DNA of 64,000 nucleotides, from assembly GCF_001317355.1 (NCBI RefSeq), contig NZ_LKET01000039.1, positions 350,574 to 414,573 of the forward strand, given 5' to 3'. Positions 814-64,000 of the stretch are shown piece after piece; position 1 is the first letter of the stretch, and each line of letters starts with the position of its first letter. A model generated the notes under the pieces. It did not search any database. It saw only the letters and a list, made by a program, of their open reading frames with translations, and was not told where the DNA came from. Both the position numbers and the translations under genes were made by a program. Source of the stretch: Oxobacter pfennigii (GTDB taxonomy: Bacteria > Bacillota > Clostridia > Clostridiales > Oxobacteraceae).

Positions 814-844
814 TCTCCTCTTTTCCCCTTTCCTTTTGTAATCA

Positions 845-1030
845 GTTACCACTTAGCACTATCATATTTAATATGATTCTATTCACTGCTACTCGACTTA
901 GAAGCTGTAAACTCGGCTTCGGGCTGCACCATAAATGTTATTGCTCAAACAATGGCGCAGCTATTCTACGCCTCGTTAACAGCTTTTCTACAGCCACTTC
1001 GCAATGTTCCTTTCATCATATCAAATATCA
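845..1030 (-). repeat. Dispersed intergenic element family A, copy in minus orientation
   Basis: The reverse complement (GATATGATGAAAGGAACATTGCGAAGTGGCTGTAGAAAAGCTGTTAACGAGGC...GAGTTTACAGCTTCTAAGT) aligns to the copies at 18895, 53738 and 58214. Confidence 0.55.
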
Positions 1031-1143
1031 TTACTTTATGAATTGTTATGCATATTTGGTAACTGATTACAAAGAAGTTTATAATCCTTGTACCACTCTT
1101 GTATAATCTTTGGCCGTATTTCATAATAGTATTAGAGTTATAA

Positions 1144-8464: not shown

Positions 8465-8660
8465 GAGCTGTTGCATTTGAAACAACGTAAATGAGCATTG
8501 TGAGAGTTCTCTCTAAAGTTCTTGGTGACTCTGCCAAAGATATTACTTAGAATTTTAGATTGTTTGAGCGAATGAAGTTTAAAAATTCTTGTATTTTCAA
8601 GGCAGGAAACCTTAGAACTTGCGGAAGTCGAACACAGCGAATTGAGTGTTCAAAATGCAA
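8465..8660 (+). repeat. Dispersed element family B, copy 1 (inverted relative to the copy at 53228-53420)
   Basis: About 85-90 percent nucleotide identity to the reverse complement of 53228-53420. It lies between the T-box terminator and trpE. Confidence 0.55.
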
Positions 8661-15176: not shown

Positions 15177-15255
15177 CTTTTAAAACCCTTGGATTTGGTG
15201 TAAACTATGGATAGTACCAAAAGTAAAAGGAGGCATTTCATAACGATATTGTTGG

Positions 15256-15359
15256 CCTGTTGGTAAGTCGGGAGGACATTGCGTAAAGACCGTGTAATTA
15301 TCAGTTACAAAATATACAAGCACTAGGTCTTGAAATGGTTCGAGAGGCTTACCAATCAG
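15256..15359 (+). repeat. Family A short copy: stem CCTGTTGGTAAGTC ... GGCTTACCAATCAG enclosing the ACATTGCGTAAAGACCGTG core
   Basis: Copy-specific flanking inverted repeat around the conserved core. The 3-prime GCACTAGGTCTTGAA resembles the ACTAGGA ends of other copies. Confidence 0.5.
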
Positions 15360-15363
15360 ACAA

Positions 15364-16131
15364 ATGAATGAAATGCCACCTGATAGTAGGGGTGATAGAG
15401 TGGCTGAAACACAAAGGCTGGACAAATTGCTGGGCAATTTGGGTTACGGTACAAGGAAGGAAGTAAAAAAACTTATAAAGGATAAGGCCATAGAGGTAGA
15501 CGGAAAAAGGGTAGATGATCCGGGTATGCATGTGGATCCCGCTAAACAAGGAATTGAAGTTTTCGGAGAGAAAGTTAATTACAGAAAATACATCTATATA
15601 ATAATGAACAAACCCCAGGGAGTCATTTCGGCTACGGAAGATACAAGGGAAGAAACGGTTATTGACATATTGCCGGAGGAATATCTGCCTTTTAGTCCGG
15701 CACCCGTGGGAAGGCTGGATAAAGACACGGTGGGTTTGCTGCTTCTGACCAACGACGGACAGCTTGCCCACATGCTGCTGTCTCCTAAAAAACATGTCCC
15801 AAAGGTTTATTACGCAAGAATTGCCGGGAAAGTCACCCAAAATGATGTTGAGGCTTTTAAAGAGGGAGTAATTTTAGATGACGGTTACAAAACCCTTCCG
15901 GCTAAGCTTGAAATAATAGAGAGTGATGTAAATTCCATAATTGAAGTTGAAATATATGAAGGAAAATACCATCAGGTAAAGAGGATGTTCGAAGCCGTAG
16001 GCAAAAAAGTAACCTTCCTCATGCGAAAGTCCATGGGCCCCCTTAAATTGTCTGAAGACCTTAAACCAGGCCAATCCAGAGAGTTAACAAACGAAGAACT
16101 TAATGCTCTTCTCGAAAAGGATAATATATAA
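15364..16131 (+). CDS. RsuA/RluB-family rRNA pseudouridine synthase
   Basis: S4 domain (RLDKLLGNLGYGTRKEVKKLIKD) and catalytic GRLDKDTVGLLLLTNDG. The start may be GTG 15400 rather than 15364. Confidence 0.75.
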   Translation: MNEMPPDSRGDRVAETQRLDKLLGNLGYGTRKEVKKLIKDKAIEVDGKRVDDPGMHVDPAKQGIEVFGEKVNYRKYIYIIMNKPQGVISATEDTREETVIDILPEEYLPFSPAPVGRLDKDTVGLLLLTNDGQLAHMLLSPKKHVPKVYYARIAGKVTQNDVEAFKEGVILDDGYKTLPAKLEIIESDVNSIIEVEIYEGKYHQVKRMFEAVGKKVTFLMRKSMGPLKLSEDLKPGQSRELTNEELNALLEKDNI

Positions 16132-16333
16132 CATTATCCTTTTTTTCAATCCGATCAGATAATTTAACAGTCACTTTCTGTGAATTTTCTCTTTCGGCCA
16201 GTCTTTTCAGAAATTCCGCCCATACTTCTTCAAAAGGCGGTACTTCTATTTTACCATATATTTCTTGTAAAGCTTCTTTAATTAACTTGTCTAAATAATA
16301 ATCCCAATAATCAATAATCATCGTCATCATACC
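16100..16333 (-). CDS. small hypothetical protein
   Basis: 78-aa ORF with GAGATGGGG upstream. No recognisable domain. It overlaps the 3-prime end of the pseudouridine synthase gene. Confidence 0.35.
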   Translation of the reverse strand, partial: GMMTMIIDYWDYYLDKLIKEALQEIYGKIEVPPFEEVWAEFLKRLAERENSQKVTVKLSDRIEKKDNVIYYPFREEH

Positions 16334-16630
16334 CCATCTCAATTAATATACTTGCCATTTGTAAATTTTTACTCTATTATATAAGACTGTGAAAATGCGT
16401 CTGCGTTTTAAAAAAATCAAAAAAATATTTAAAAAAATTTCGACAAAAATATCTGCGTCATGAGATTGGCCCGTGACATTACTGAATATATGTATTTATT
16501 TGGTGAATAATGATATCATTAGTTATGTATGTAATGCTATTCAGCTATTGGCTTAAGATATATTTTATCTTTAATTATATAGTGTAAGCATTTTGGTTAG
16601 CTATTTTGCATTGGATAATGAAATGTAAGT

Positions 16631-16756
16631 GTGATAGTTGATAGGCATAAGAACATTGCGTAAAGATCGTGTACTTGTCAGTTGAAATAGGTGTATGCAT
16701 ATGCAAAAGTTACAGGTACTAGGTCTTGAAGCAGTCCAATGCCTTAGAACTATCAC
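16631..16756 (+). repeat. Family A short copy: stem GTGATAGTTGATAGGCAT ... ATGCCTTAGAACTATCAC enclosing the AACATTGCGTAAAGATCGTG core
   Basis: Same core as 15256-15359, with a different but again complementary flanking stem. Confidence 0.5.
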
Positions 16757-16786
16757 AGGTTAAATGACACAAACTATGGAGGAGAC

Positions 16787-17674
16787 ATGTTTGGATATAT
16801 ATTTCCCGATAAGCCGGAATTGAAAGTGAAGGAGTTCGAACTTTTCAGGGCATACTACTGCGGATTATGCAAGGCCTTAGGAGAAAACTGCGGCTTGACG
16901 GCAAGATTTGTGCTGAATTACGACAGCGCTTTTTTAGGTATGCTGCTTTCATCCTTTAATGAGGCTTCTGAAAACATAGCCTTTGAAAAATGCATAGCAA
17001 ATCCCATAAAGAAAAAGCCGGTAATAAAAGAAAGCAGCATTTTAAAATATGCTTCAGACATAAATATAATATTGGCGTATTATAAGCTGAAGGATGATTA
17101 TGAGGATGACAGATCTCCAAAAGCTCTTGCGATGATGGGAGTGTTAAAATCCGCATTTAACAAGAGTATAAAAAGAAACATGAAAAAGGGGAGCGTAATA
17201 AAGAATAAATTAGAGGAGCTTTCAAAAATAGAAAAGGCCGGCTGCAAATCCATCGATGAGGCGGCAGAGCCCTTTGCCAAGCTGACGGAAGAAATATTTG
17301 CATATAAGCCTGTATGCGATACGGAAAATAAAGAGCAGTTATTAAGATGGTTTGGGTATAATATAGGTAAATGGATATACATCATTGATGCTTATGATGA
17401 CTTGGAAAAGGATATAGCCGCTAAAAGTTTTAATCCAATACTTGGCCAGTTCTGTTATAATAATGAGAAAGCAGAAGATTTTAAAAACAGGATAAAAGAT
17501 AATGTTAATTTTACACTCACATATACATTAAGTGAAGCAGGCAAGGCCTACGAGCTTCTGGAACTCAAGAAGAATGCATCCATAATTGAAAATATAGTAT
17601 TCGGAGGCATGTATAACAAGACACTTCAAATCATTAACAAAAGGAGCTGTAAGAATAATGAAAAACCCTTATGA
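16787..17674 (+). CDS. hypothetical protein (DUF5685-like, conserved Cys pair [14 protein letters not shown])
   Basis: 295-aa ORF with an RBS, followed by a coupled J-domain gene. The family assignment is from memory. Confidence 0.55.
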
Positions 17675-18287
17675 GGTCCTGGGGATAAATCAGGGAGCAT
17701 CAGAGGATGAAATAAAGAGAGCATATAGAGAGCTTGTTAAGAAATATCATCCCGATCAATACAGGGACAACCCCTTGTCCAAGCTGGCTGAAGAAAAACT
17801 TAAAGAAATAAATGAAGCCTATGATTACCTTATAAAAAATAAAGGGACTTTCCATGAAAGCCATGATAATAATAGTACTAACGGCGGATACAGCAATACT
17901 AACAGCACTAACGGCGAATTTGCAAGAATAAGGATTCTCATAAATTCAGGAAATATAGTTGAAGCGGAAAAATTACTGGATGCTTCATCGCTTAAAAATG
18001 CCGAATGGCATTATCTTAAAGGGGTCATAAATGTAAAGAAAGGATGGTACAGTGAAGGCTATACCTACCTTCAGACGGCAGTCAGCATGGACCCCAACAA
18101 TTTTGAATACCGGGCGGCATTGAATAATTTAAACCGTTCCACCCGCACCTACACATCAAGGCCTTACAGCGGGACTCAAAGGGGCGGTTATAACGACGGG
18201 CCGGATATGTGCACTATTTGCCAGTGGCTTTACTGTGCTGATTGCTGCTGCGAGTGCATGGGCGGAGACTTCATAAACTGTTGCTAA
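17658..18287 (+). CDS. J-domain (DnaJ-like) protein with a Cys-rich C-terminal tail
   Basis: J domain ([30 protein letters not shown]) with a TPR-like middle. The C-terminus is [25 protein letters not shown]. Confidence 0.7.
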
Positions 18288-18299
18288 GGAGTTGATTTT

Positions 18300-18806
18300 A
18301 TGGTATCGGGAACCAAGAAAATTGCTTTAGGTGGAATGCTTTGCGTGTTGTGTATATTTTCCCTGTACCTTGCCGTACATTTACCCACCAACAGAATATT
18401 TTTTTATGGGTTAAGTTCGGTTTTTGCTTCAATAATAATGATAGAAGGCGGAACTAAATGGGCTTTCATCTTTTATGGCGCTACCTCCATTTTAGGCATG
18501 CTTTTAATTCCAAACAAACTGGGTGTAGTTCCCTATGGTTTGTTTTTCGGATTATATGGCATCGTGAAATATTATATCGAAGGAATAGCAAATATCATAT
18601 TGCAGCTTCTTTTAAAGGGCGGATTTTTTATCTTAGGTATGGGCGGCACGGCAATACTGTTGCAAGAGCTATTTATGACTGAAGTCACTTCCAGGCTATC
18701 AATATGGGCTCTGACTGTTATCGGCCTCGCCATATTTTATTTATATGACTATGTATACACCAGGTTTGTACACTATTATGAAACTGTGTTGAGAAAGAAA
18801 TTATAA
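18300..18806 (+). CDS. polytopic membrane protein, hypothetical
   Basis: 4-5 predicted TM helices, 11 nt downstream of the J-domain gene. Confidence 0.5.
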   Translation: MVSGTKKIALGGMLCVLCIFSLYLAVHLPTNRIFFYGLSSVFASIIMIEGGTKWAFIFYGATSILGMLLIPNKLGVVPYGLFFGLYGIVKYYIEGIANIILQLLLKGGFFILGMGGTAILLQELFMTEVTSRLSIWALTVIGLAIFYLYDYVYTRFVHYYETVLRKKL

Positions 18807-18894
18807 CTATAAAATTAAGTATTTAACTGGATGATACAGAGACAGGTCAGGAGAAGGTTTTTACATTTCAATTGATATGCATTTTGATATACAA

Positions 18895-19082
18895 GATTGA
18901 TATGATGACTAAACATTGCGAAAGGACTGTAGAAGCTGTTAATGAAGCAAGGATAGCTGCTCCGTTGTTTGGGCGTAAGTGAGTTATGGCGATAAGTTGG
19001 AGACATTCCTCAACAAAGAAGGAGTGCCCCCATTCCTTGAACAGCCGAATCTACAGATTCTAAGTACTGTAGACGTGAATGG
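18895..19082 (+). repeat. Dispersed element family A, long copy
   Basis: GATTGATATGATGACTAAACATTGCGAAAGGACTGTAGAAGCTGTTAATGAAGC ... GAGACATTCCTCAACAAAGAAGGAGTGCCCCC ... CTAAGTACTGTAG. Confidence 0.55.
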
Positions 19083-19118
19083 AGTTATATCAAACCTGCA
19101 AATAAAAGGGGTGATTAT

Positions 19119-19598
19119 ATGAAAGGTATGATGAGAAGAAAAGACAGGGAAATGCAAAGGGATGAGGCGTTGGAGTTTTTGAGGGAATGCCATGTCGGTA
19201 GGCTGGGCACGGCATCACCTGAGGGAGTTCCTTATGTGACGCCGGTGAACTATGTATTCTTTGACGAAGACATATATTTTCACTGTGCGCTTTCCGGGCA
19301 TAAGCTTGAAAATATAAAAGAAAATGAAAATGTTTGTTTTGAAGTTGACGAACTTATAAGTATAGTTGAGGATGAAAACCCATGTGAGATAAGCACTAAA
19401 TATAAAAGTGTGGTGGCCTTCGGAAAGGCAAGCATTGTGGAAGATGATGAAGTACGCCTTGAAGCCTTGAAGAAACTCGTCGATAAGTATGTATCTGAAA
19501 ATAATGTCAGCTCTAAGCTTACTATTGACAAAATGACTAAAACCCGTGTTGTAAAAATTAAACCTGAAATAATTACCGGAAAAGCATCGATAAAGTAG
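19119..19598 (+). CDS. pyridoxamine 5-prime-phosphate oxidase-family FMN-binding protein
   Basis: PNPOx split-barrel pattern (HVGRLGTASPEGVPYVTPVNYVFFDEDIYFH). Confidence 0.7.
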   Translation: MKGMMRRKDREMQRDEALEFLRECHVGRLGTASPEGVPYVTPVNYVFFDEDIYFHCALSGHKLENIKENENVCFEVDELISIVEDENPCEISTKYKSVVAFGKASIVEDDEVRLEALKKLVDKYVSENNVSSKLTIDKMTKTRVVKIKPEIITGKASIK

Positions 19599-22054: not shown

Positions 22055-22630
22055 ATGGATAAGAAATCTGGATATAAAAATTTAGCGGAGAAATTTAACA
22101 TAGATTTAAGGGAATGTAAGTTCTTAGGTGAAGGCCATAACGGAATCGTGTATTTGCTTCCAGACGGCAAGATAATTAAAATTTTTAAGAAGATAAAAAA
22201 TTGCGAAAGCGAATATTCCATATTGGAGGCCGTCAGAGGCAGTAAATATTTTCCTAAAGTCTATGGTTCCATGGGAAATTACATCATAAGAGATTATGTA
22301 GGCGGAGAATGCTTGAAGGACTACATAAAAAGGAACGGCCTTGATAAAAAGGTAGCTAAGAACCTGATAAATCTAATTGAAGAGTTTAAGAAATTGAATT
22401 TTAAAAAGCTTGATATAAGATGCAAGGATATTTACGTACAAAAAGATAAGTCCCTGATGGTTATAGACCCTAAATACTCATTCACCAGAGAAAAGAGCTT
22501 TCCCAAGCACTTATCAAAAGGCTTGAGCAAACTGGGCGTGCTGGGTGATTTTTTGGAGGTTGTCAGAATTGAGAAACCTCAAGTTTATGAGGAATGGACA
22601 GGGAAACTCATAGAATCAGGAATTTTATAG
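22055..22630 (+). CDS. small protein-kinase-like fold protein
   Basis: Gly-rich loop LGEGHNGIVY and a following Lys (KIFKK). About 190 aa. ATG 22055 is preferred over TTG 22034. Confidence 0.5.
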   Translation: MDKKSGYKNLAEKFNIDLRECKFLGEGHNGIVYLLPDGKIIKIFKKIKNCESEYSILEAVRGSKYFPKVYGSMGNYIIRDYVGGECLKDYIKRNGLDKKVAKNLINLIEEFKKLNFKKLDIRCKDIYVQKDKSLMVIDPKYSFTREKSFPKHLSKGLSKLGVLGDFLEVVRIEKPQVYEEWTGKLIESGIL

Positions 22631-23526: not shown

Positions 23527-23552
23527 TAATGGTTTATAAATTCTCGCATTTT

Positions 23553-23613
23553 GCCAGCTTGATATGATGAAATGAACATTGCGGAGCTGTGAATGAAATC
23601 ATATCAAGCTGGC
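23553..23613 (+). repeat. Family A minimal copy: 16-bp stem GCCAGCTTGATATGAT/ATCATATCAAGCTGGC enclosing the AACATTGCGGAGCTGTG core
   Basis: Perfect 16-bp inverted repeat around the family core. It lies between cbiX and hemA. Confidence 0.5.
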
Positions 23614-23641
23614 ATGGCGGTGAACGTTGGAGATGATTGAT

Positions 23642-24835
23642 ATGATTCAGCTTATTGGAGTTAATGATGAGGATGTGTGTATACGCGAAAAACTTTCGAT
23701 AATACCGAAGCATCTGGAGGATGCATTGAAAAAAGCTGCCGAGCTGTGCGGGGAGGCGGCCATAATAAGTACCTGCAACAGGACCGAAGTGTATTTTAAT
23801 TCTACGAGAACTGGGGACGGCATCATAGAATGCATTTTTAACTGTTTAGGCTGGGATAAGGAATTGATAAAGTACACTATCTACAAATGCGGAGATGAGG
23901 CAGTGCGTCATTTGATAGAAGTAACCTGCGGAGTGCATTCAAGGATATTGGGAGAAGAGCAGATATTAGGCCAGGTAAAGGACGCCTATGATTTGGCACT
24001 TAAAAATAAAACCATAAAAGGGGAACTTGACAGGCTTTTTCATACTGCAATAACCTGCGGCAAGGAATTTCGCCATAAATCAGAGCTTGATAAAATTCCG
24101 GTATCATCAGCTTCCATGGTAATACGCGAGGCAAGGAAAAGAAGCTTAAAAAGATTCATGGTCTTAGGCTATGGCGAAGTAGGAAGTTTGGCCTGTAAAT
24201 ATATTTTAGAAGAACCCTTTGATGTTTTATACATAGCCGTCAGAGATACAAGTGTTGTGGATATTAAGGATAGAAGAGTAAAAGTCATCCCTTTTAGAGA
24301 AAGAAAAGAATATTATCCAGATGTGGAATGCATAATATCCTGTACTTCGGCTCCTCATACAGTAATAAATTCAAATGAGCTTCCAAACAGAAAGCTCATG
24401 ATATTTGATATGGCGGTTCCTAGGGATGTGGATTGGGATGTCAACGGTATTAACGGTAACGAAGTTTACGATATAGATATGATAAGCGCATTGTTTGATG
24501 AGAGTCTTGAAAAGAGAAGGAAAATCCTTGAAAATTTCAGACATCTTATTGAGAAGCACATACAGGAATTTGAAAAATGGCAGAATTTAAAAAAGCTTTC
24601 ACCCTATATAAAAAGGATGAAGGAAAACGGAGAACAGATTTATAAACAAAGAAGCACTGCCTTTAGGAATAAAAGGCATACAAAAGATAATGAGAACCTT
24701 GCAGACATTCTTATAAAAAGTACGGCAGATGTATATGTAAACAGGGCTATAGAAGTGCTGAAGGAAGAATATTTAGAAGGCAGGGGAGAAGAATGCCTCA
24801 AGATAATAGAAAAGATATTTCTGATAAAATGCTAG
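23642..24835 (+). CDS. hemA: glutamyl-tRNA reductase
   Basis: HemA N-terminus (IQLIGVN...STCNRTEVY). About 400 aa. Confidence 0.85.
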   Translation: MIQLIGVNDEDVCIREKLSIIPKHLEDALKKAAELCGEAAIISTCNRTEVYFNSTRTGDGIIECIFNCLGWDKELIKYTIYKCGDEAVRHLIEVTCGVHSRILGEEQILGQVKDAYDLALKNKTIKGELDRLFHTAITCGKEFRHKSELDKIPVSSASMVIREARKRSLKRFMVLGYGEVGSLACKYILEEPFDVLYIAVRDTSVVDIKDRRVKVIPFRERKEYYPDVECIISCTSAPHTVINSNELPNRKLMIFDMAVPRDVDWDVNGINGNEVYDIDMISALFDESLEKRRKILENFRHLIEKHIQEFEKWQNLKKLSPYIKRMKENGEQIYKQRSTAFRNKRHTKDNENLADILIKSTADVYVNRAIEVLKEEYLEGRGEECLKIIEKIFLIKC

Positions 24836-30050: not shown

Positions 30051-30162
30051 TTCTTTTTCACAAGTTCATAAGGGGACGGTTCAACCTGTTATATCATATA
30101 GTATAATAATGCCACTTTTGGTTAAACTAACAATACAATAGTAACTAAAGGTGGTGTTTTCT

Positions 30163-31077
30163 ATGCCAAGATGTGCCAGAGAAAAAAGTTTGGACAGCGT
30201 ATATCACGTAATGGTCCGCAGTATTGCCGAAATTAATTTGTTTACAGACCACGCTGACAAAGACGTATATATGAGGCTTTTAAAAAGATATAAGGATATT
30301 TATCTGTTTAAGGTTTATGGCTTTTGTCTCATGGAAACTCACGGACATATAATAATCGACGTACAGGGTGCTGACATATCAAGGATAATGCACGGAGTGA
30401 ATCAAAGCTATGCCTGGTATTACAACCATAGGCACAAACGTCATGGTCACTTGTTTCAGGACAGGTTCAAAAGCAAAATCGTATCAGATGACAGGTACCT
30501 TATAACTTTATCAGCATACATACATAATAATACTCAAGATATTGAAGGTTACGAAAACCAGGTAGAAAAATATGAATACTCAAGCTTAGGAATATATTTA
30601 GGCAGCATGGAAAATAAATATGGCCTGGTGGACAAAGAGTTTATATTAAGCCAGATAAGCTATAATACTGCTATTGCAAAGAAGCAGTACCTTGAATTGG
30701 TATATAGAGATAACCCGGATATAATTCCCGATGATGCAGAGTTTAAAAATGAAAAGGCACAATACAGATCCGAGAGAAAAGTAATCGTAAGAAGCTTCAG
30801 ACCGGATGAAGTGGTGAGCTTTGTTGAAAACTATATAAAGCAGTATAATACAAACATCAGTATAAAGTATACCAAGAAAAATATTGAGGCTAAGGCATTA
30901 TCAGTATTGCTTTTACGAGGGATATGTGATATGAAGCAGAAGGATATATGTGCCTTTATGGGAAACATAACCCAGTCTCACTCGGCAAAGCTGTGTGCCA
31001 GGGGTATAGATTTGTTGCAGCGGAAAAAGGAGTATATGAATATAGCCAAGGATTTCATACGAAGAAAAGCCGGATAA
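30163..31077 (+). CDS. RAYT/IS200-like HUH Y1 transposase-domain protein with a DnaA-C-like HTH C-terminus (probably domesticated)
   Basis: N-terminus MPRCAREKSLDSVYHVMVR, HuH motif METHGHIIID and catalytic Tyr block SAYIHNN. The C-terminal 70 aa resemble DnaA domain IV. AAAGGTGGTG RBS. Confidence 0.7.
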   Translation: MPRCAREKSLDSVYHVMVRSIAEINLFTDHADKDVYMRLLKRYKDIYLFKVYGFCLMETHGHIIIDVQGADISRIMHGVNQSYAWYYNHRHKRHGHLFQDRFKSKIVSDDRYLITLSAYIHNNTQDIEGYENQVEKYEYSSLGIYLGSMENKYGLVDKEFILSQISYNTAIAKKQYLELVYRDNPDIIPDDAEFKNEKAQYRSERKVIVRSFRPDEVVSFVENYIKQYNTNISIKYTKKNIEAKALSVLLLRGICDMKQKDICAFMGNITQSHSAKLCARGIDLLQRKKEYMNIAKDFIRRKAG

Positions 31078-31240
31078 CCTTGAAAGTATAGTATTTTAAG
31101 TATAATTTGGAGAAAAAGTTATTATATCTTTATAATTTTTTTAAAATGGTACAAGCCTTTAAAATTGCTTGTTTTGCAGTAGATTTTATATTTTTAAGTA
31201 CAGAAGCATCAAAAATATCCAGAAAAACCAGAAAAACCAT

Positions 31241-31297
31241 AGGGACGGTTCATGCCAAACTGTTGTTCTAAAACTCAAATTATGATGAACCGTCCCT
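31241..31297. repeat. 13-bp-stem hairpin AGGGACGGTTCAT...ATGAACCGTCCCT between convergent RAYT-like and floT genes (REP-like / bidirectional terminator)
   Basis: Perfect 13-bp inverted repeat. It shares the GGGACGGTTCA motif with 30073-30083 and with the 33571-33745 array. Confidence 0.6.
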
Positions 31298-31306
31298 AAG
31301 CCTTTA

Positions 31307-32695
31307 CTACCCTTCAGTTCCTATGGAATCCTCGGGGATTTCTTTTTTTGTCCCTGTAAGATAGTTTGGAAGCTCCAACCCCGCCATTTTGAAGACATCT
31401 TCATACGGAGGAATGGATTTCAGCATTCCCGACAGAAAATTAGCTGTGGATGGAGTGCCGCTGCCCCCCGACATGGAATCCCATACGGTGATCTTATCAA
31501 TCTTGATGTTCTTGATGGCTTCCACCTGAATTTTTGCAAGCTGTTCCATCTTATCAGCGATCATAAGGGCAACCGCATTCTTTGGATCGTTTCCTGCTGC
31601 CGCCACTATCTTTTCAAAACCCTCTGCCTGTTTGCTCAGTACTTCCATTACTCCTGTTGCTTCTGCCTGCATTTTAAACAAAATGGCGTCGGCTTCACCC
31701 TTTGCCCGGCGGCGGAGGGTTTCGGCCTGGGCTTCGGCATCTATTTCGGCTTTTTGTTTTTCAATTTCGGCGTGGATTATGACGTCTGCCGTCTTTGTGG
31801 CCCTTTCCCTTTCGGCACGGGCCATTTCCGCACTTTGCTCTGCGGAATATGCTTCTTCCAGGGCCTTTGCAGACTGTACCTTCTCAGCTGCAACCGCTCT
31901 CCTGTTGGCTTCAGCTTCCTTTTCCCTTTTTTCTGCCTCGGAATTTGCAATGGTTATCCTGGCCAGGTTTTCACCCTCAACAGCTTTGGAGTTTGCCTCC
32001 GATACCTGTATTCTCTGGTCCATTTGGGCATTTGCCTCACCTATGGAACCGTCGCGGTCTTTTTCAGCAACGCTCTTTTTGGCATCGTTAATAGCCTTGG
32101 ATGCGGCTTCTTTACCCAGGGCTTCAATATAACCGGATTCATCCTTTATGTCTGTAACGTTAACGTTTATAAGCTTTAAACCAATCTTTTTAAGTTCAGC
32201 CTCCACGTTTTTGGATACATTGGCTAAAAATTTATCTCTGTCTGAATTTATTTCCTCAATATCCATGGTGGCAATTACAAGCCTTAGCTGGCCAAATATA
32301 ATATCCTTTGCCAGTTCCTGTATATCCTTAAGCTGCAGCCCCAAGATTCTTTCCGCCGCATTTGGCATAACCTCGGGTTCCGTGGAAATACCTACGGTAA
32401 ATCTGGAAGGTACATCCACCCTTATGTTCTGTTTGCTCAATGCCTTGGTCAAATTTACTTCGATCGAAATCGGAGTCAAATCTAAAAATTCATAATTCTG
32501 TATAACAGGCCATACAAAGGCAGCTCCTCCATGGATGCATTTTGCAGACCTTGCCGTGCCGTCTCCGCTTCTTCCTATCTTACCATAAACAACGAGTACC
32601 TTATCGGACGGACATCTTTTAAATCTTAAAAACAGCATAATAACGGTTGATAGTATTGCCACTGCTATGACAGTGTATAAAATTATCTCATACAT
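31307..32695 (-). CDS. floT: flotillin-like SPFH/band-7 protein
   Basis: N-terminal TM, SPFH domain and a long Ala/Glu-rich flotillin repeat region. 462 aa. Confidence 0.85.
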   Translation of the reverse strand: MYEIILYTVIAVAILSTVIMLFLRFKRCPSDKVLVVYGKIGRSGDGTARSAKCIHGGAAFVWPVIQNYEFLDLTPISIEVNLTKALSKQNIRVDVPSRFTVGISTEPEVMPNAAERILGLQLKDIQELAKDIIFGQLRLVIATMDIEEINSDRDKFLANVSKNVEAELKKIGLKLINVNVTDIKDESGYIEALGKEAASKAINDAKKSVAEKDRDGSIGEANAQMDQRIQVSEANSKAVEGENLARITIANSEAEKREKEAEANRRAVAAEKVQSAKALEEAYSAEQSAEMARAERERATKTADVIIHAEIEKQKAEIDAEAQAETLRRRAKGEADAILFKMQAEATGVMEVLSKQAEGFEKIVAAAGNDPKNAVALMIADKMEQLAKIQVEAIKNIKIDKITVWDSMSGGSGTPSTANFLSGMLKSIPPYEDVFKMAGLELPNYLTGTKKEIPEDSIGTEG

Positions 32696-33349: not shown

Positions 33350-33570
33350 AATATCCCCCCTTAAAAGAAGCAGCTAATTTATTATGCTAAGAAAGCGAAC
33401 ATATTTATTATGATAGAAGGTATTAAAGAAAATGATCTTAAATATGGTTTTGTGCAGGCCCCTATTTAATTATAATCATAAAAGGTGAGTCCAGTCCACA
33501 AAATCAGCACAATTTAAAAGCAGATTTGCCCACGTCTACTTGATATAAATATTTTAAAGAGAAAGTAGGA

Positions 33571-33745
33571 TGAGCCGTCCCGTATTTTGTCAAAGAAAAA
33601 ATAGAATGAACCGTCCCTGTTGTTATGAACCGTATTTTGTCAAAGAAAAAATAGAATGAACCGTCCCTGTTGTTATGAACCGTCCCTGTTGTTACTGCTG
33701 TTGTTAAAAGAAAAAGTGGAGTGAACCGTCCCCTATTGTTATAAT
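33571..33745. repeat. tandem direct repeats (about 50-bp unit x 2.5, then a degenerate copy) containing 5 copies of the (A/G)TGAACCGTCCC / ATGAACCGT motif
   Basis: Unit GAACCGTATTTTGTCAAAGAAAAAATAGAATGAACCGTCCCTGTTGTTAT repeated. It lies in the divergent intergenic region of nfeD-floT and the NUDIX gene. Confidence 0.7.
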
Positions 33746-35332: not shown

Positions 35333-35587
35333 AGCAAGCCGTCGGCCAAACCGACGGTTATTTCTTGCCCATTTTTACCACTACATATATAATTAGAATG
35401 GAAATTTGGATAAAATATAAGCTGTGGACACTCCTCGGATTAGAAACTAGTATTGCTGATAAGAGCGTAACCTGCACGAGGAGTGTTCTCTAACAGCTTA
35501 CAATTTCATCTGGCATATGCAGATATCTGATTACAAGGAAGCGGCAAGCTTTTTGTAATCAAATACCTTCGAAAGGGTAGTGATAAT

Positions 35588-42070: not shown

Positions 42071-42182
42071 TTAAGCCTTTATCTGCGCTTATGTATCGTC
42101 CGCATCTTATCCCGTTTTCGCAGGTGCCCTGATCTTTGGAAGGGCGCCGGCACCTGACTGAGGTCTCTTCAGTCATACGCTT

Positions 42183-42232
42183 CCCCCTGTGAGAGACGGC
42201 AGGACATGCCGCCGCCATAGGGGGCGTTTTTT
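42183..42232 (+). terminator. intrinsic terminator after the PucR-like gene
   Basis: CCCCCTGTGAGAGACGGCAGGACATGCCGCCGCCATAGGGGGCG followed by T7. Confidence 0.5.
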
Positions 42233-42589
42233 TACATTTTCTTATTTGTTATTTGGATTTTAGAATTAAATTTCAGTCTAATCATGGTTTTACAGAAAAA
42301 AATAAGTCTGAAACTCTATATACACAACATTTTGATGAAAAGCGGCGTAACACTTCATTCACAATTCGGATTGTTTTTTAAAAAAATTCCAGTTATTATT
42401 GTTAGTTAGTGGTACTTTGTAACAGCATTATTCTTTATCCTAATGGCCTAATGAGAAAAGGAGGAGAAAGTTTAAATCACCTATAACCTTAAGAAACTAA
42501 GGAGTATCGGCGAGTTTCTGAACACAACAGTGCCCTTCACTCACCACATCTACTACTACAATATCTATTAAAATATTCATGATTTTGGG

Positions 42590-43010
42590 CATATCCAAAC
42601 ACTTCATTTTTCATATTTACTAAATGAATATCCCATCACGGTGCCGGAAAATTTCTAAGCGGTTGTAAACAGTGGCAAGCATCTGTGGATACCACCGCCA
42701 ATGATATCGTAAACATCGAATTCCGGGTTAGTACTGATCACATTCCGGAGCATAAGTCTGCGACCTTGGTCCCGCGAAGCCTAGCGAGATAAAAGGGCAT
42801 TTCAGAGCTGTTCGGCCTTTAGCAGGTGTATTCCCTAACGGTTGGCGGTTCTATGGTCAAGTTCGGCATGCCACCATCGACGATGCAAAGAAGTGGTATA
42901 AAAAGATCCGCTTCCCGGACATCGAAGCCATTAACCGGGATTTTATGGCAAAGCTCAAGGCCCTTTTAGGAATGAAACCCGCATTTTAAGATGCTGCTCC
43001 CAGAAAGGCC
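42590..43010 (+). pseudogene. frameshifted remnant of a transposase-like gene
   Basis: Two adjacent frames read ...DTTANDIVNIEFRVSTDHIPEHKSATLVPRSLAR and ...EIKGHFRAVRPLAGVFPNGWRFYGQVRHATIDDAKKWYKKIRFPDIEAINRDFMAKLKALLGMKPAF with no start or RBS. Family not identified. Confidence 0.3.
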
Positions 43011-43206
43011 TGTTCTGGCGTCTGATTTTCTTCATGCACTTTAGCGGACCAGCCATGGCCTATCTATCATGGCAAACACTCACCGTCTCCATCAAACTCA
43101 TTTAAGGCTCTTTACCGTCAGAGCCCTATGGTCGTATGTGCCTTTAATATCCGCCGTTACAGAGGAAAACACTATACTCAAATATTAGATTTTAGGAGGA
43201 TGTAAC

Positions 43207-44631: not shown

Positions 44632-45471
44632 GTTTAGCATAGACAATTTTAAATATAATAAAATACCCATCAGTGCTATCCCTGCCGGTACAGCGACAGG
44701 GCAATTAGGCATCGGCTCTCTCACGGGACGCATGTCCGGTGCCATAGCCATCAGAGTGATGGACAATTCCATGTGTTTCTTATAGAGAAGGATTCGGAGC
44801 AATCTAAAAGACAATTATACGAGGATGCCGATTATCACAGGCATCCTCCTTTTGCATGTATTTAAACAGCCTGACCTTGATTCTAACCCGAAATTATTGC
44901 CGCAGCTCAAAGGAGTGGGCCTGATATGGATAAACTTGATTTCCGTATAAACTGCCATAGCTATGCCGGTCGGTGCGACACTATCCGCTCCGACTCCGCA
45001 ACCGCATAAATCTGGTTTGCAGAGTCGGAAAGAAAACCCGGTATTCCGAAGTTTTTGAGCGCAAAGGAGAGTGGCATGTCTTGCCGCTTACTTTTTTGCC
45101 TAACCTGTCCTCGCCTCGTTTATTATGAATGGCAGCAGTCGCAGTAAGAATTCGGCCCCAGCTTCAGCAATTTGATACTTCGTATGGCTTTCATTTAAAA
45201 ACGTAAAAACGCGTTGAAAAGCCGGCGGTATGGGCATGAACGCAGCAATACGCCGGTGCAAATAAAAGTTCAGGCAAATAATCTGGAGGTAACAAGGTCC
45301 CTGGAATACGCTAACAGTCTATGATTGATATTGCAGGAGGGGATCTTATATATTTTTGCATCAGACATGGCATATATGCAGGAAAAACAAAATAAACATC
45401 GAAATAATAATGTGAAAATTCACAGACCATTACAATCTTTCCTATATAATATCAATTTGCGGAGGTAGGTC

Positions 45472-53174: not shown

Positions 53175-53182
53175 CAAATTTG

Positions 53183-53207
53183 GGGATACAACTTTAGTTG
53201 TGTCTCC
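53183..53207. repeat. REP-like hairpin copy 2 (GGGGATACAACTTTAGTTGTGTCTCC), 9 nt after the permease stop
   Basis: Same palindrome as 790-813. Its two substitutions keep pairing as G-U wobbles only in the + strand transcript. Confidence 0.65.
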
Positions 53208-53227
53208 TTACACTTTTACGCTGAATT

Positions 53228-53420
53228 TTGAACACCCCTCTCGTTGTGTTCCAGTTCTGAAAGTTCTAAGGCTCCCTGCCTTGAAAATGCAAGAATTTTT
53301 AAACTTCCTTCCGCTCAGACAATCTAAAATTCTAAGCAATATCTTTGGCAGCGTCGCCAAGAACTTTCAAAGAACTCTCACAATGCTATGGCGTTGTTCA
53401 AAATTCAGCGTCCTAAAATG
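53228..53420 (-). repeat. Dispersed element family B, copy 2 (inverted relative to 8465-8660)
   Basis: The reverse complement aligns to 8465-8660 at about 85-90 percent identity. Confidence 0.55.
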
Positions 53421-53737
53421 TACATCTACAGCCTCTGACTATATTAACAGCAGTCAGGGGCTATTTACGTTGTATTCCTTTCCATATACAAGTTTGCTAC
53501 TTTGGATATAATTGAATATAATAAATACTGATATCATTTCAAGCTTTTGACTGTATTAATTGCCATCTAAACGGAATTGTGTAGAATCTATATAGAACAA
53601 GCAAATGAAAATTGCTATGATATCAGTAAAGACGGAGTTATAGCGGAATGTTCATGTGGCTGTTAACCTCTATACTTGGGTTAGAGTGTAAATGATGTTT
53701 GTTTATAAATAAAAGAATCTTTAAAGTTGAGATGGCG

Positions 53738-54068
53738 TGATATGATGAATGGACATTGCGAAAGGACTGTAGAAGCTGTTAACGAAGCGGAGGAAAGCTG
53801 GAGTCATTATATGAGTGATAGAGATGTTTATAAGAAAGATTAAAATAATCTGACTTTATAATTTATGTAACTTCTGCCTTCATTTGCAAAGCTGGAAATA
53901 ACAAAGCTGGAAATAATAGCGTAAAGGCCGTGTTTCTGTTAGCGAAGTACATGAAGCATAAGTCATTGTCTGAGCGATAGCGTATAAATTGAGGACATTC
54001 CTCAATAAAAAGAGGAGTGTCCCCTAACCTTAAACATACGAGTTTTACAGACACTAGGAATTAGAGCG
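53738..54068 (+). repeat. Dispersed element family A, long mosaic copy
   Basis: GTGATATGATGAATGGACATTGCGAAAGGACTGTAGAAGCTGTTAACGAAGC ... ATAAGTCATTGTCTGAGCGATAGCG ... GAGGACATTCCTCAATAAAAAGAGGAGTGTCCCC ... GAGTTTTACAGACACTAGGA. It shares 5-prime and 3-prime blocks with 18895 and 58214. Confidence 0.55.
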
Positions 54069-54116
54069 TAATTGACGGCTTAAAAATGAAAACAGAGGGG
54101 TAAGGAGAGAACTAAA

Positions 54117-58149: not shown

Positions 58150-58213
58150 ACTGCTTAGAAAAAATAAGCTTATCAAACTTAGGGGATTAAGTACAAACTA
58201 ATGTACCAGCAGA

Positions 58214-58437
58214 TATGATGAACAAAACATTGCGCAGTGACTGCAGAGGCTGTTAACGAGGTAATTTTGCATAGTCTATTAGTAACGAAGACTAGTAGAT
58301 GTGATAGTAAGCCAAAAGAGATAGCGGAATGTCCGTGTGCCTGTTAACGAAGGACAGGCAACATAAGTCATTGTTTGAGCGATAGCGAGTTATGACTTAT
58401 GTCCTGGCCGAGTTTTACAGACACTAGGACATGCAGC
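58214..58437 (+). repeat. Dispersed element family A, long copy
   Basis: AGATATGATGAACAAAACATTGCGCAGTGACTGCAGAGGCTGTTAACGAGG ... ATAGCGGAATGTCCGTGTGCCTGTTAAC ... ATAAGTCATTGTTTGAGCGATAGCG ... GAGTTTTACAGACACTAGGA. Confidence 0.55.
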
Positions 58438-58466
58438 GTTCTGAAGGTTTACTATCAATCGCATTG

Positions 58467-63922: not shown

Positions 63923-63972
63923 AATATAAAAATAGTGTTTGTTCATCTATACTCTCTCCTTAACTTATAAAC

Positions 63973-64000
63973 CGGGACACAACTTTAGTTGTGTCCCGGT
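63973..64000. repeat. REP-like hairpin copy 3 (CCGGGACACAACTTTAGTTGTGTCCCGG), 50 nt after the rubrerythrin stop, at the window edge
   Basis: 12-bp perfect stem, same core as 790-813. Confidence 0.65.

Follow-up and report, generated by a model that had tools for sequence, protein, structure and literature searches.

The 64,000-nucleotide stretch of the Oxobacter pfennigii genome analysed here (the window; contig NZ_LKET01000039.1, positions 350,574 to 414,573) contains a family of related non-coding repeats, with nine units in seven intergenic gaps, each folding into a rod of stacked helices in which pairing is preserved by compensatory changes and the fold is biased to one strand. On balance, we regard the family as a lineage-specific set of modular structured intergenic repeats that are probably carried in the transcripts of neighbouring genes, whose fold is maintained, and which probably affect the processing or stability of those messages.

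An earlier note on this DNA, in which the copy at 15256-15359 was flagged, had listed seven loci, and all are found at the positions it gave by sequence, BLAST and covariance model. A strict core pattern has four matches at <=2 mismatches, with 0.00 expected from shuffles, and self-BLAST connects all seven loci. The covariance model, built on six units and run unfiltered on both strands of the window, recovers nine units, with the next match at E=0.11 and within coding sequence; the borderline match at 22180-22249 was discarded because it falls in a coding region. Both long plus-strand loci are real, although the model splits each into two units and they are therefore tandem pairs, not the single long copies originally described. 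The units are 55-200 nt long with a GC content of 35-45%, and the copies are 75-90% identical to each other. They form three mutually alignable sub-types: A at 845 (minus strand), 18895, 53735 and 58208, together with the internally deleted unit at 23553; B at 53896 and 58299; and S at 15256 and 16631. The units and their closing stems (H1) are as follows, with scores from the covariance model and RNA fold z-scores relative to shuffled sequences.

835-1073, minus strand: A1 locus, between htrA-like and glpK; core unit 864-1026 (also the model-called extent), 137.6 bits, z=-8.21; H1 at 1028-1015 / 877-864.
15256-15359, plus strand: S1, the flagged copy, between trpA and rsuA-like; called at 15258-15359, 69.7 bits, E=1.4e-14, z=-3.06; H1 at 15256-15269 / 15346-15359, 13 bp with one U.G pair and one bulged U; core ACATTGCG at 15276-15283.
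16631-16756, plus strand: S2, between rsuA-like and DUF5685; called at 16635-16756, 95.3 bits, z=-5.16; H1 at 16631-16648 / 16739-16756, 15 bp with a 3x3 internal loop in addition; stops 30 nt short of the DUF5685 start codon (16787).
18897-19093, plus strand: A2, between a hypothetical gene and PNPOx-like; called at 18895-19097, 133.1 bits; H1 at 18897-18906 / 19084-19093, 10 bp including two G.U; stops 26 nt short of the PNPOx-like start codon (19119).
23552-23614, plus strand: A5, between cbiX and hemA; called at 23557-23611, 27.3 bits, E=3.7e-4, z=-6.77.
53640-53667, plus strand: B3, a fragment corresponding to the 5' half alone of a B-type unit (ATAGCGGAATGTTCATGTGGCTGTTAAC), 89% identical to 58321-58348.
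53735-53887, plus strand: A3, first unit of the tandem pair between an ABC permease and tsaD; 43.1 bits, E=4.9e-8.
53896-54090, plus strand: B1, second unit of that pair; 114.1 bits; stops ~27 nt short of the tsaD start codon (54117).
58208-58298, plus strand: A4, decayed first unit of the tandem pair between the convergent genes for a histidine kinase and an ABC-F protein; 25.4 bits, E=1.1e-3.
58299-58462, plus strand: B2, second unit of that pair; 128.0 bits, fold of -51.0 kcal/mol; no downstream gene on the plus strand.

The family shows the decay and modularity typical of repeats, with one unit deleted internally, one reduced to a half, tandem pairs, and an extra block that only some units have. 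A5 retains just the two ends of a unit, 5' (H1a, CATTGCG) and 3' (GTGAATG, H1b). A3 is 89% identical to A2 in its 5' half and decayed in its 3' half, and in A4 only 5 of the 10 H1 positions are still paired. The internal and 3' blocks said to be shared among the long copies are indeed shared: block GAGTTTTACAGACACTAGGA is identical at 21/21 positions between 54039 and 58409, and the ATAAGTCATTGTYTGAGCGATAGCG block has 84% identity across 67 nt (53916-53982 and 58321-58387). The arm motif also occurs three times in tandem at a spacing of 12-13 nt (TTGATATGC, TTGATATAC, TTGATATGA; 18872-18906), running into A2, and similar doublets are seen at A1 (TGATAT-TTGATATGA) and S2 (TGATAG-TTGATAG). A small-protein reading was discarded: no common open reading frame (ORF) was found across the units, S1 and A5 have none of >=20 amino acids, and the reading frames are shifted from copy to copy.

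The near-invariant core common to the units consists of A-CAUUGCG, (U)AAAG, a UA bulge and CUGU/ACAG. From the outside in, a unit is composed of H1, a purine-rich joiner, H2, an internal loop, H3, a bulge, H4, H5 and a tip. H2 is formed by the invariant CAUUGCG with GCAGUG or GUGAAUG, in two registers among the copies, and shows no covariation because its 5' side never varies. The A-rich internal loop has (U)AAAG facing UUGAA or GAGUA, and is followed by H3 (GNCY/RGNC) and the invariant UA bulge. H4 is GUGU/RYAC in B and S, and UAGAA/UUCUA in a shifted register in A; H5 is CUGU/ACAG, and beyond it lies a variable tip that has extra hairpins or is deleted. In full-length units the tip hairpin has a copy-specific stem, GCUGCGCC/GGUGCAGC in A1 and CAUAAGUC/GACUUAUG in B2, and a conserved loop, AUUGUYUGAGCGAUAGCG. 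A2 contains an additional hairpin block (GGAGACATTCCTC...GGAGTGCCCCC) that is also present in B1; this block of ~47 nt (GAGGACAUUCCUC...GAGGAGUGYCCCC) is missing from their closest relatives A1 and B2, so modules have been exchanged or inserted independently. Single-sequence folds are far more stable than shuffles in four of five copies (z=-8.2, -6.8, -5.2 and -3.1), with A2 at only -1.3. H2, the A-rich loop and H3 together resemble the P4-J4/5-P5 region of a group I intron. A group I intron was nonetheless rejected: there is no Intron_gpI (RF00028) match at E<=10, and the units are simple rods with another helix order and no counterpart of P7/P3/P8.

The conserved core with copy-specific covarying stems, which was the central proposal of the earlier note, is borne out both by RNAalifold and by a test on a hand alignment. 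On an automatic MAFFT alignment RNAalifold returns part of H2 together with H3, H4 and H5, a total of 15 pairs, six of them with double-sided changes. MAFFT misaligns H1, and a hand alignment of eight rows and 30 named pairs, with N replacing gaps, was therefore used. In this alignment 90.8% of the cells in these pairs are complementary, compared to 74.8 +/- 2.2% when shuffled (0/500 shuffles reach the observed value) and 28.6-41.5% when the partners are slid by 1-3 columns; double-sided changes occur in 17 of the 30 pairs, compared to 6.6 +/- 1.9 when shuffled (0/500) and 0-3 when slid, although these covariation figures are inflated, as the alignment was fitted to the structure and the outer H1 columns were matched by position and not by homology. 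The test establishes that pairing is maintained, and its figures do not represent a calibrated probability. The compensatory differences chiefly separate sub-families and not individual copies.

Non-Watson-Crick cells in the named helices include 10 G.U and two A.C (binomial p=0.019), and the sense strand has a lower RNA minimum free energy than the antisense strand in all 12 of the units and composite loci compared, a result that does not depend on any alignment. For A1, which lies on the minus strand of the window, the values are -60.6 kcal/mol (sense) and -39.7 kcal/mol (antisense), the opposite direction to the background, in which random window segments favour the plus strand by 2-4 kcal/mol (standard deviation 5-9). 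Conservation is lowest in the terminal arms (pairwise identity 0.49-0.55, and 0.17 in their outer part) and highest in the interior (H2a 0.87, UA bulge 1.00, H5 0.78-0.92). The G.U bias, the stability of the sense strand and the conserved interior together favour a fold selected on one strand, most likely and most simply as RNA, with single-stranded DNA of the same strand as a less likely alternative.

The same data bear on a DNA-level explanation, in which the units are non-autonomous derivatives of miniature inverted-repeat transposable elements (MITEs) or foldback elements, the arms are terminal inverted repeats (TIRs) bound by a transposase, and the RNA fold is a by-product; sub-families A, B and S would derive from parent elements with different ends, so that both arms changed together. 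In its favour, the arms form inverted repeats, with arm TTGATATGAT common to five units; deleted, tandem and decayed forms are what transposon debris typically looks like, and both the restriction to a single lineage and the location of most compensatory differences between sub-families fit this account. However, no unit has a target-site duplication, the conservation pattern is the reverse of that expected for transposase-bound ends, the complementarity reaches into copy-specific DNA (7, 9, 14 and 17 bp), the G.U excess and the better-folding sense strand are strand-specific, and the window has no transposase with matching ends. We therefore consider a DNA-level origin of the pattern unlikely. 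A classical TIR-type MITE fits poorly: no target-site duplication was seen, and the arms, although complementary, are the least conserved part of the unit and differ between sub-families; several unit flanks are themselves inverted repeats and not direct repeats. The copies are not fragments of any insertion sequence visible in the window.

The sequence of the closing stem varies among copies while its complementarity is retained. The three inverted repeats originally quoted exist as written, and they do differ from each other while remaining complementary, with the qualification that their arms are diverged homologues (5' arms TTGATATGAT in A, TTGGTAAGTC in S1 and TTGATAGGCA in S2) and that the arm at 23553 is not peculiar to that copy, since TTGATATGAT/ATCATATCAA is common to five units. 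All four differences between the S1 and A arms are compensated on the 3' arm (ATCATATCAA to GGCTTACCAA), three by Watson-Crick pairs and one by U.G. Pairing also extends past the shared sequence into copy-specific DNA, by 7 bp at 23552, 9 bp at 16631 and 4 bp at A1. The stem at 23553-23613 is thus composed of the shared arm and its 7-bp extension, and is perfect over 17 bp overall. Two further outer layers, which the earlier note did not include, surround A1 and S1.

835-851 / 1057-1073: outer inverted repeat of A1, a separate perfect pair of 17 bp.
15228-15241 / 15368-15381, plus strand: outer layer of S1, inverted repeat AGGAGGCATTTCAT / ATGAAATGCCACCT, 14 nt, 93% complementary; its 3' arm stops 19 nt short of the rsuA-like GTG start at 15400.

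Because complementarity runs on into copy-specific flanks, every unit lies within a larger palindrome of its own. This nesting is a loose end, and could reflect insertion into hairpin loops. An inverton test notes the perfect 17-bp repeats around A1, the sole copy in the opposite orientation; the A5 arms are only 29 nt apart, the other arms are wobble-paired or bulged, and none of the 40 window ORFs scanned is a recombinase gene. Two hairpins in the spacer upstream of tsaE also have arms of similar sequence: one at 35428-35486 (GGACACTCCTCG...CGAGGAGTGTTC) has arms resembling the extra block of A2 and B1 and contains GAGCGTAA in its interior, and one at 35521-35568 (CTGATTACAA/TTGTAATCAA) has arms resembling the outer arms of A1. 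The repertoire of modules may therefore be wider than the nine units detected by the model.

Almost every gene in the window is on the plus strand, and the folding strand of the repeat is the plus strand at six of the seven loci. The neighbours are housekeeping genes with no common function; among them, the rsuA-like product (15400-16131) is 100% identical to an Oxobacter pfennigii pseudouridine synthase at NCBI. Five of the seven loci end 26-41 nt (41, 30, 26, 28 and ~27) before a plus-strand start codon, including where the spacer is as long as 655 or 942 nt, a placement with a chance of <1e-3 by a rough uniform-placement estimate on a small sample. At the two remaining loci no gene follows on the strand of the element. 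No terminator and no convincing promoter was found at the copies. An internal promoter was suggested by the resemblance of arm TGATATGAT to an extended -10 box, flagged at A1, and was rejected as a general feature since this motif is missing from the S-type arms and changes in the arm are matched in its partner.

At hemA the 3' arm of A5 has a second potential partner. AATCATATCAA (23596-23606) within this arm and TTGATATGATT (23636-23646) can form 11 perfect base pairs, with a duplex energy of -15.9 kcal/mol compared to -8.8 +/- 2.4 for shuffles; the other four loci perform no better than shuffles. TTGATATGATT is an exact third copy of the arm motif that covers the hemA start codon (23641), 22 nt downstream of A5, and within the window the exact arm 10-mer is confined to the arms of the family and the hemA start region. 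In this predicted arrangement the 5' arm of A5 and the start-codon region of hemA would be alternative partners for the A5 3' arm. Start-codon sequestration as a general property was discarded, as it holds at only one of the five loci.

These features of placement are those on which a new class of functional RNA would be proposed, either a cis-acting 5'-leader module or a family of small RNA genes, with a trans-acting factor (protein, RNA or ligand) reading ACAUUGCG, the AAAG loop and the UA bulge, and no constraint on the sequence of the closing stems. The combination of conserved loops and covarying stems is the classic pattern of such an RNA, and the strand-specific fold, the position of five loci just before start codons and the complementarity at hemA agree with it. 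The downstream genes (rsuA-like, DUF5685, PNPOx-like, hemA and tsaD) nonetheless have no theme, two loci lack any downstream gene on the element's strand, no terminator is present and sequestration of the ribosome-binding site is predicted at only one locus in five, and there are half, decayed and tandem units. A copy identity of 75-90% indicates recent amplification and not ancient conservation, and no relatives occur in the other genomes searched. We accordingly regard a functional class of this kind as rather doubtful. The suggestion of a structured repeat family has stood up well, whereas that of a riboswitch-like or regulatory small RNA class has not: there is no coherent set of regulated genes and no general expression platform, and the unrelated neighbours, the truncated and tandem units, the copies without a downstream gene and the lack of outside relatives all speak against it.

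The searches for relatives are consistent with a narrow distribution. No copy matched Rfam 15 at the gathering score and none at E<=10, in searches of 15200-19150 and of the whole window, in keeping with the original statement that the core fits no known class. The Rfam search did recover the cobalamin, FMN and purine riboswitches of the window, its T-box leader and one tRNA, which shows that it worked. Pattern scans of sequence collections needed 18-23 exact bases. An 18-base S-type core pattern has five matches in 185,579 species-representative genomes, in unrelated phyla, at about the number expected by chance and none in Oxobacter, the source genome itself being apparently absent from this collection; a 21-base A-type 5'-end pattern has three matches in the JGI metagenomes, in apparently coding DNA and with no likeness beyond the pattern; and a pattern scan of the IMG/VR viral contigs has 0 matches. 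Plasmids and phages have no BLAST match to the best unit. In the closest relatives, 50 kb around the rsuA loci contain no unit by either BLAST or the covariance model; these loci are not syntenic, and the protein matches have ~75% amino-acid identity where a value is reported. No account of Oxobacter repeats or of the core motif was found in the literature. As far as scans for exact patterns can show, the family appears to be confined to the Oxobacter pfennigii lineage.

The window encodes a RAYT-like (REP-associated tyrosine transposase) IS200-type Y1 transposase of 308 amino acids (30151-31077; Pfam Y1_Tnp, E=1.8e-13), and raises the question of a single-stranded-DNA element whose hairpins are handled by an HUH/Y1 enzyme such as this, by analogy with repetitive extragenic palindromes (REPs) and bacterial interspersed mosaic elements (BIMEs), IS200/IS605 ends or integron attC sites. 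The strand-specific fold tolerates G.T pairs and bulges, and six of the seven folding strands are on the plus strand, which corresponds to the lagging-strand template if genes and replication are co-oriented, although co-transcription explains this orientation equally well. Against this, the hairpins flanking the RAYT-like gene belong to another family, GGGACGGTTCAT/ATGAACCGTCCC, which is the likelier partner; the units are multi-helix rods of 55-200 nt, unlike REPs with their 20-40 nt; paired subterminal hairpins such as those of IS200/IS605 are absent; and no attC R''/R' cores were seen by eye. This makes a single-stranded-DNA element very improbable. The GGGACGGTTCAT/ATGAACCGTCCC hairpin follows the RAYT-like gene (31230-31308; also 31266-31297), its motif is repeated in a tandem cluster at 33544-33744, and the ATGAACCGTCCC-type hairpins have no similarity to the main repeat family; these CGTC-containing palindromes are likelier to be the cognate REPs of the RAYT-like protein (compare PMC3733652). 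The description of the main family as REP-BIME-like consequently holds as a loose analogy and not in the strict sense, which requires elements of 20-40 nt that are usually GC-rich and carry a GTAG or CGTC tag: the units have no constant terminal tetranucleotide, and their size and composition (40% GC) are wrong.

For the repeat family as we interpret it, we infer the route of amplification, the transcription and the effect as follows. The units would have multiplied within the lineage through transposition or recombination of a kind that does not duplicate the target site, and would now be carried in the transcripts of their neighbours, mostly in 5' leaders or in intercistronic spacers just before ribosome-binding sites. 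Selection, or repair templated by the hairpin, would preserve the RNA hairpin. By analogy with ERIC, BOX, Correia and bcr1, for which such effects are documented, the likeliest consequence would be that of a stable stem-loop changing mRNA processing or stability. A dedicated sensor role is unlikely.

Several observations weigh against this interpretation. The sample is small, with nine units within one 64-kb window, and the hand alignment flatters the covariation as described above. The flanks of all units were read directly and show no target-site duplication, and the window has no autonomous partner or empty site, such that mobility is purely presumptive. The invariant single-stranded core suggests a specific binding partner, and the placement at start codons is tighter than passive hitch-hiking predicts, which hints at function or an insertion preference. 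Finally A1, the best-folded copy, lies in antisense orientation relative to the genes on either side, after the htrA-like terminator and upstream of the predicted glpK promoter; co-transcription therefore cannot account for its preserved fold. These points could be accommodated by an amplified cis-acting RNA module that is read by a trans-acting partner, or by a mobile element that inserts into hairpin loops near gene starts, which together we see as having only a modest chance of being correct. In the first case the partner may read ACAUUGCG, the A-rich loop, the UA bulge and the tip loop AUUGUYUGAGCG of a module located just before ribosome-binding sites; in the second, insertion into hairpin loops would explain the nested copy-specific outer stems.

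Other repeats are also present in the window. A second rod-shaped repeat, named 'family B' by the earlier note and distinct from sub-type B, is located at 8472-8659 (plus strand) and 53222-53407 (minus strand), with one copy between the T-box leader and trpE. Its two copies are 84% identical over 189 nt, slightly below the 85-90% estimated by eye, just as the GC content of the window, at 40.5%, lies marginally above the 35-40% first given for the host. This repeat has long-range inverted arms with a compensatory change of C-G to A-U in the outer stem, its sense strand folds better, and the 12-mer AUUGUYUGAGCG occurs both in its tip loop and in the tip hairpin of the main family. The two families together occupy roughly 15% of the intergenic DNA of the window. 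A hairpin, GGGGACACAACTTTAGTTGTGTCCC, is found in three near-identical copies (786-813, 53179-53206 and 63970-63997), each right after a plus-strand stop codon; copies 1 and 2 have a common pyrimidine-rich tail, a terminator scan flags copy 1, and copy 3 is at the end of the window. These constitute a repeated terminator-like family. The spacers at 42071-43206 (1136 nt) and 44632-45471 (840 nt) contain no Rfam match, family member or convincing ORF. The DUF3243, DUF5685 and T-box assignments of the earlier note are correct.

Extrapolated to the whole genome, the density in the window would mean several hundred copies, placed in housekeeping-gene leaders of a biotechnologically interesting acetogen, and the units could influence mRNA stability, operon polarity and genome rearrangement. 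The family is a possible riboswitch false positive in comparative screens and a possible strain-typing marker. It also provides a compact natural data set for separating selection on RNA from hairpin-templated repair as the process behind compensatory changes.

Among known systems, riboswitches and other Rfam leaders share with the Oxobacter family a conserved core closed by a stem that varies and covaries, and the usual position within a 5' leader in the orientation of the gene. They differ from it in that the family has no Rfam match, no coherent set of genes, no general platform and no conservation beyond one species, and includes decayed and tandem copies as well as copies that no gene follows. 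BOX elements of Streptococcus pneumoniae and BIMEs of E. coli are similar in being mosaics of a few blocks that are recombined and occur in tandem or in part. BIMEs, however, are built from GC-rich REP palindromes of 20-40 nt tied to a RAYT, whereas the Oxobacter modules are larger and mutually nested in hairpins, and BOX elements consist of boxA, boxB and boxC, which are different modules. ERIC elements (intergenic repeat units of the Enterobacteriaceae) are imperfect intergenic palindromes of ~127 bp, and Wilson and Sharp reportedly described in 2006 size variants arising by internal deletions and insertions, with the RNA fold conserved. They have TIRs, target duplications and a flanking 5'-TA-3', whereas the Oxobacter family has neither the TA nor a duplication and is least conserved at its termini; they belong to another taxon and have no sequence similarity to it.

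A further parallel in kind may be drawn with bcr1 and related bcr repeats; bcr1 is Firmicute-specific, ~155 bp long, intergenic and lineage-restricted, with a stability that varies by copy. It shows insertion polymorphism between strains. Unlike the Oxobacter family, bcr1 has 5-bp direct repeats and is a cruciform of two independent stem-loops as opposed to one rod with a variable tip; the two have no sequence similarity. In the Bacillus cereus group bcr1 is transcribed and its RNA fold is kept via compensatory changes, and ERIC elements are co-transcribed with their neighbours and alter mRNA processing (PMC3184786). A survey of 40 genomes identified 92 stem-loop repeat families, mostly intergenic and with a predicted common fold (PMC2267715). 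Species-specific families of stem-loop repeats are thus already known to be common, and the Oxobacter family adds to that category.

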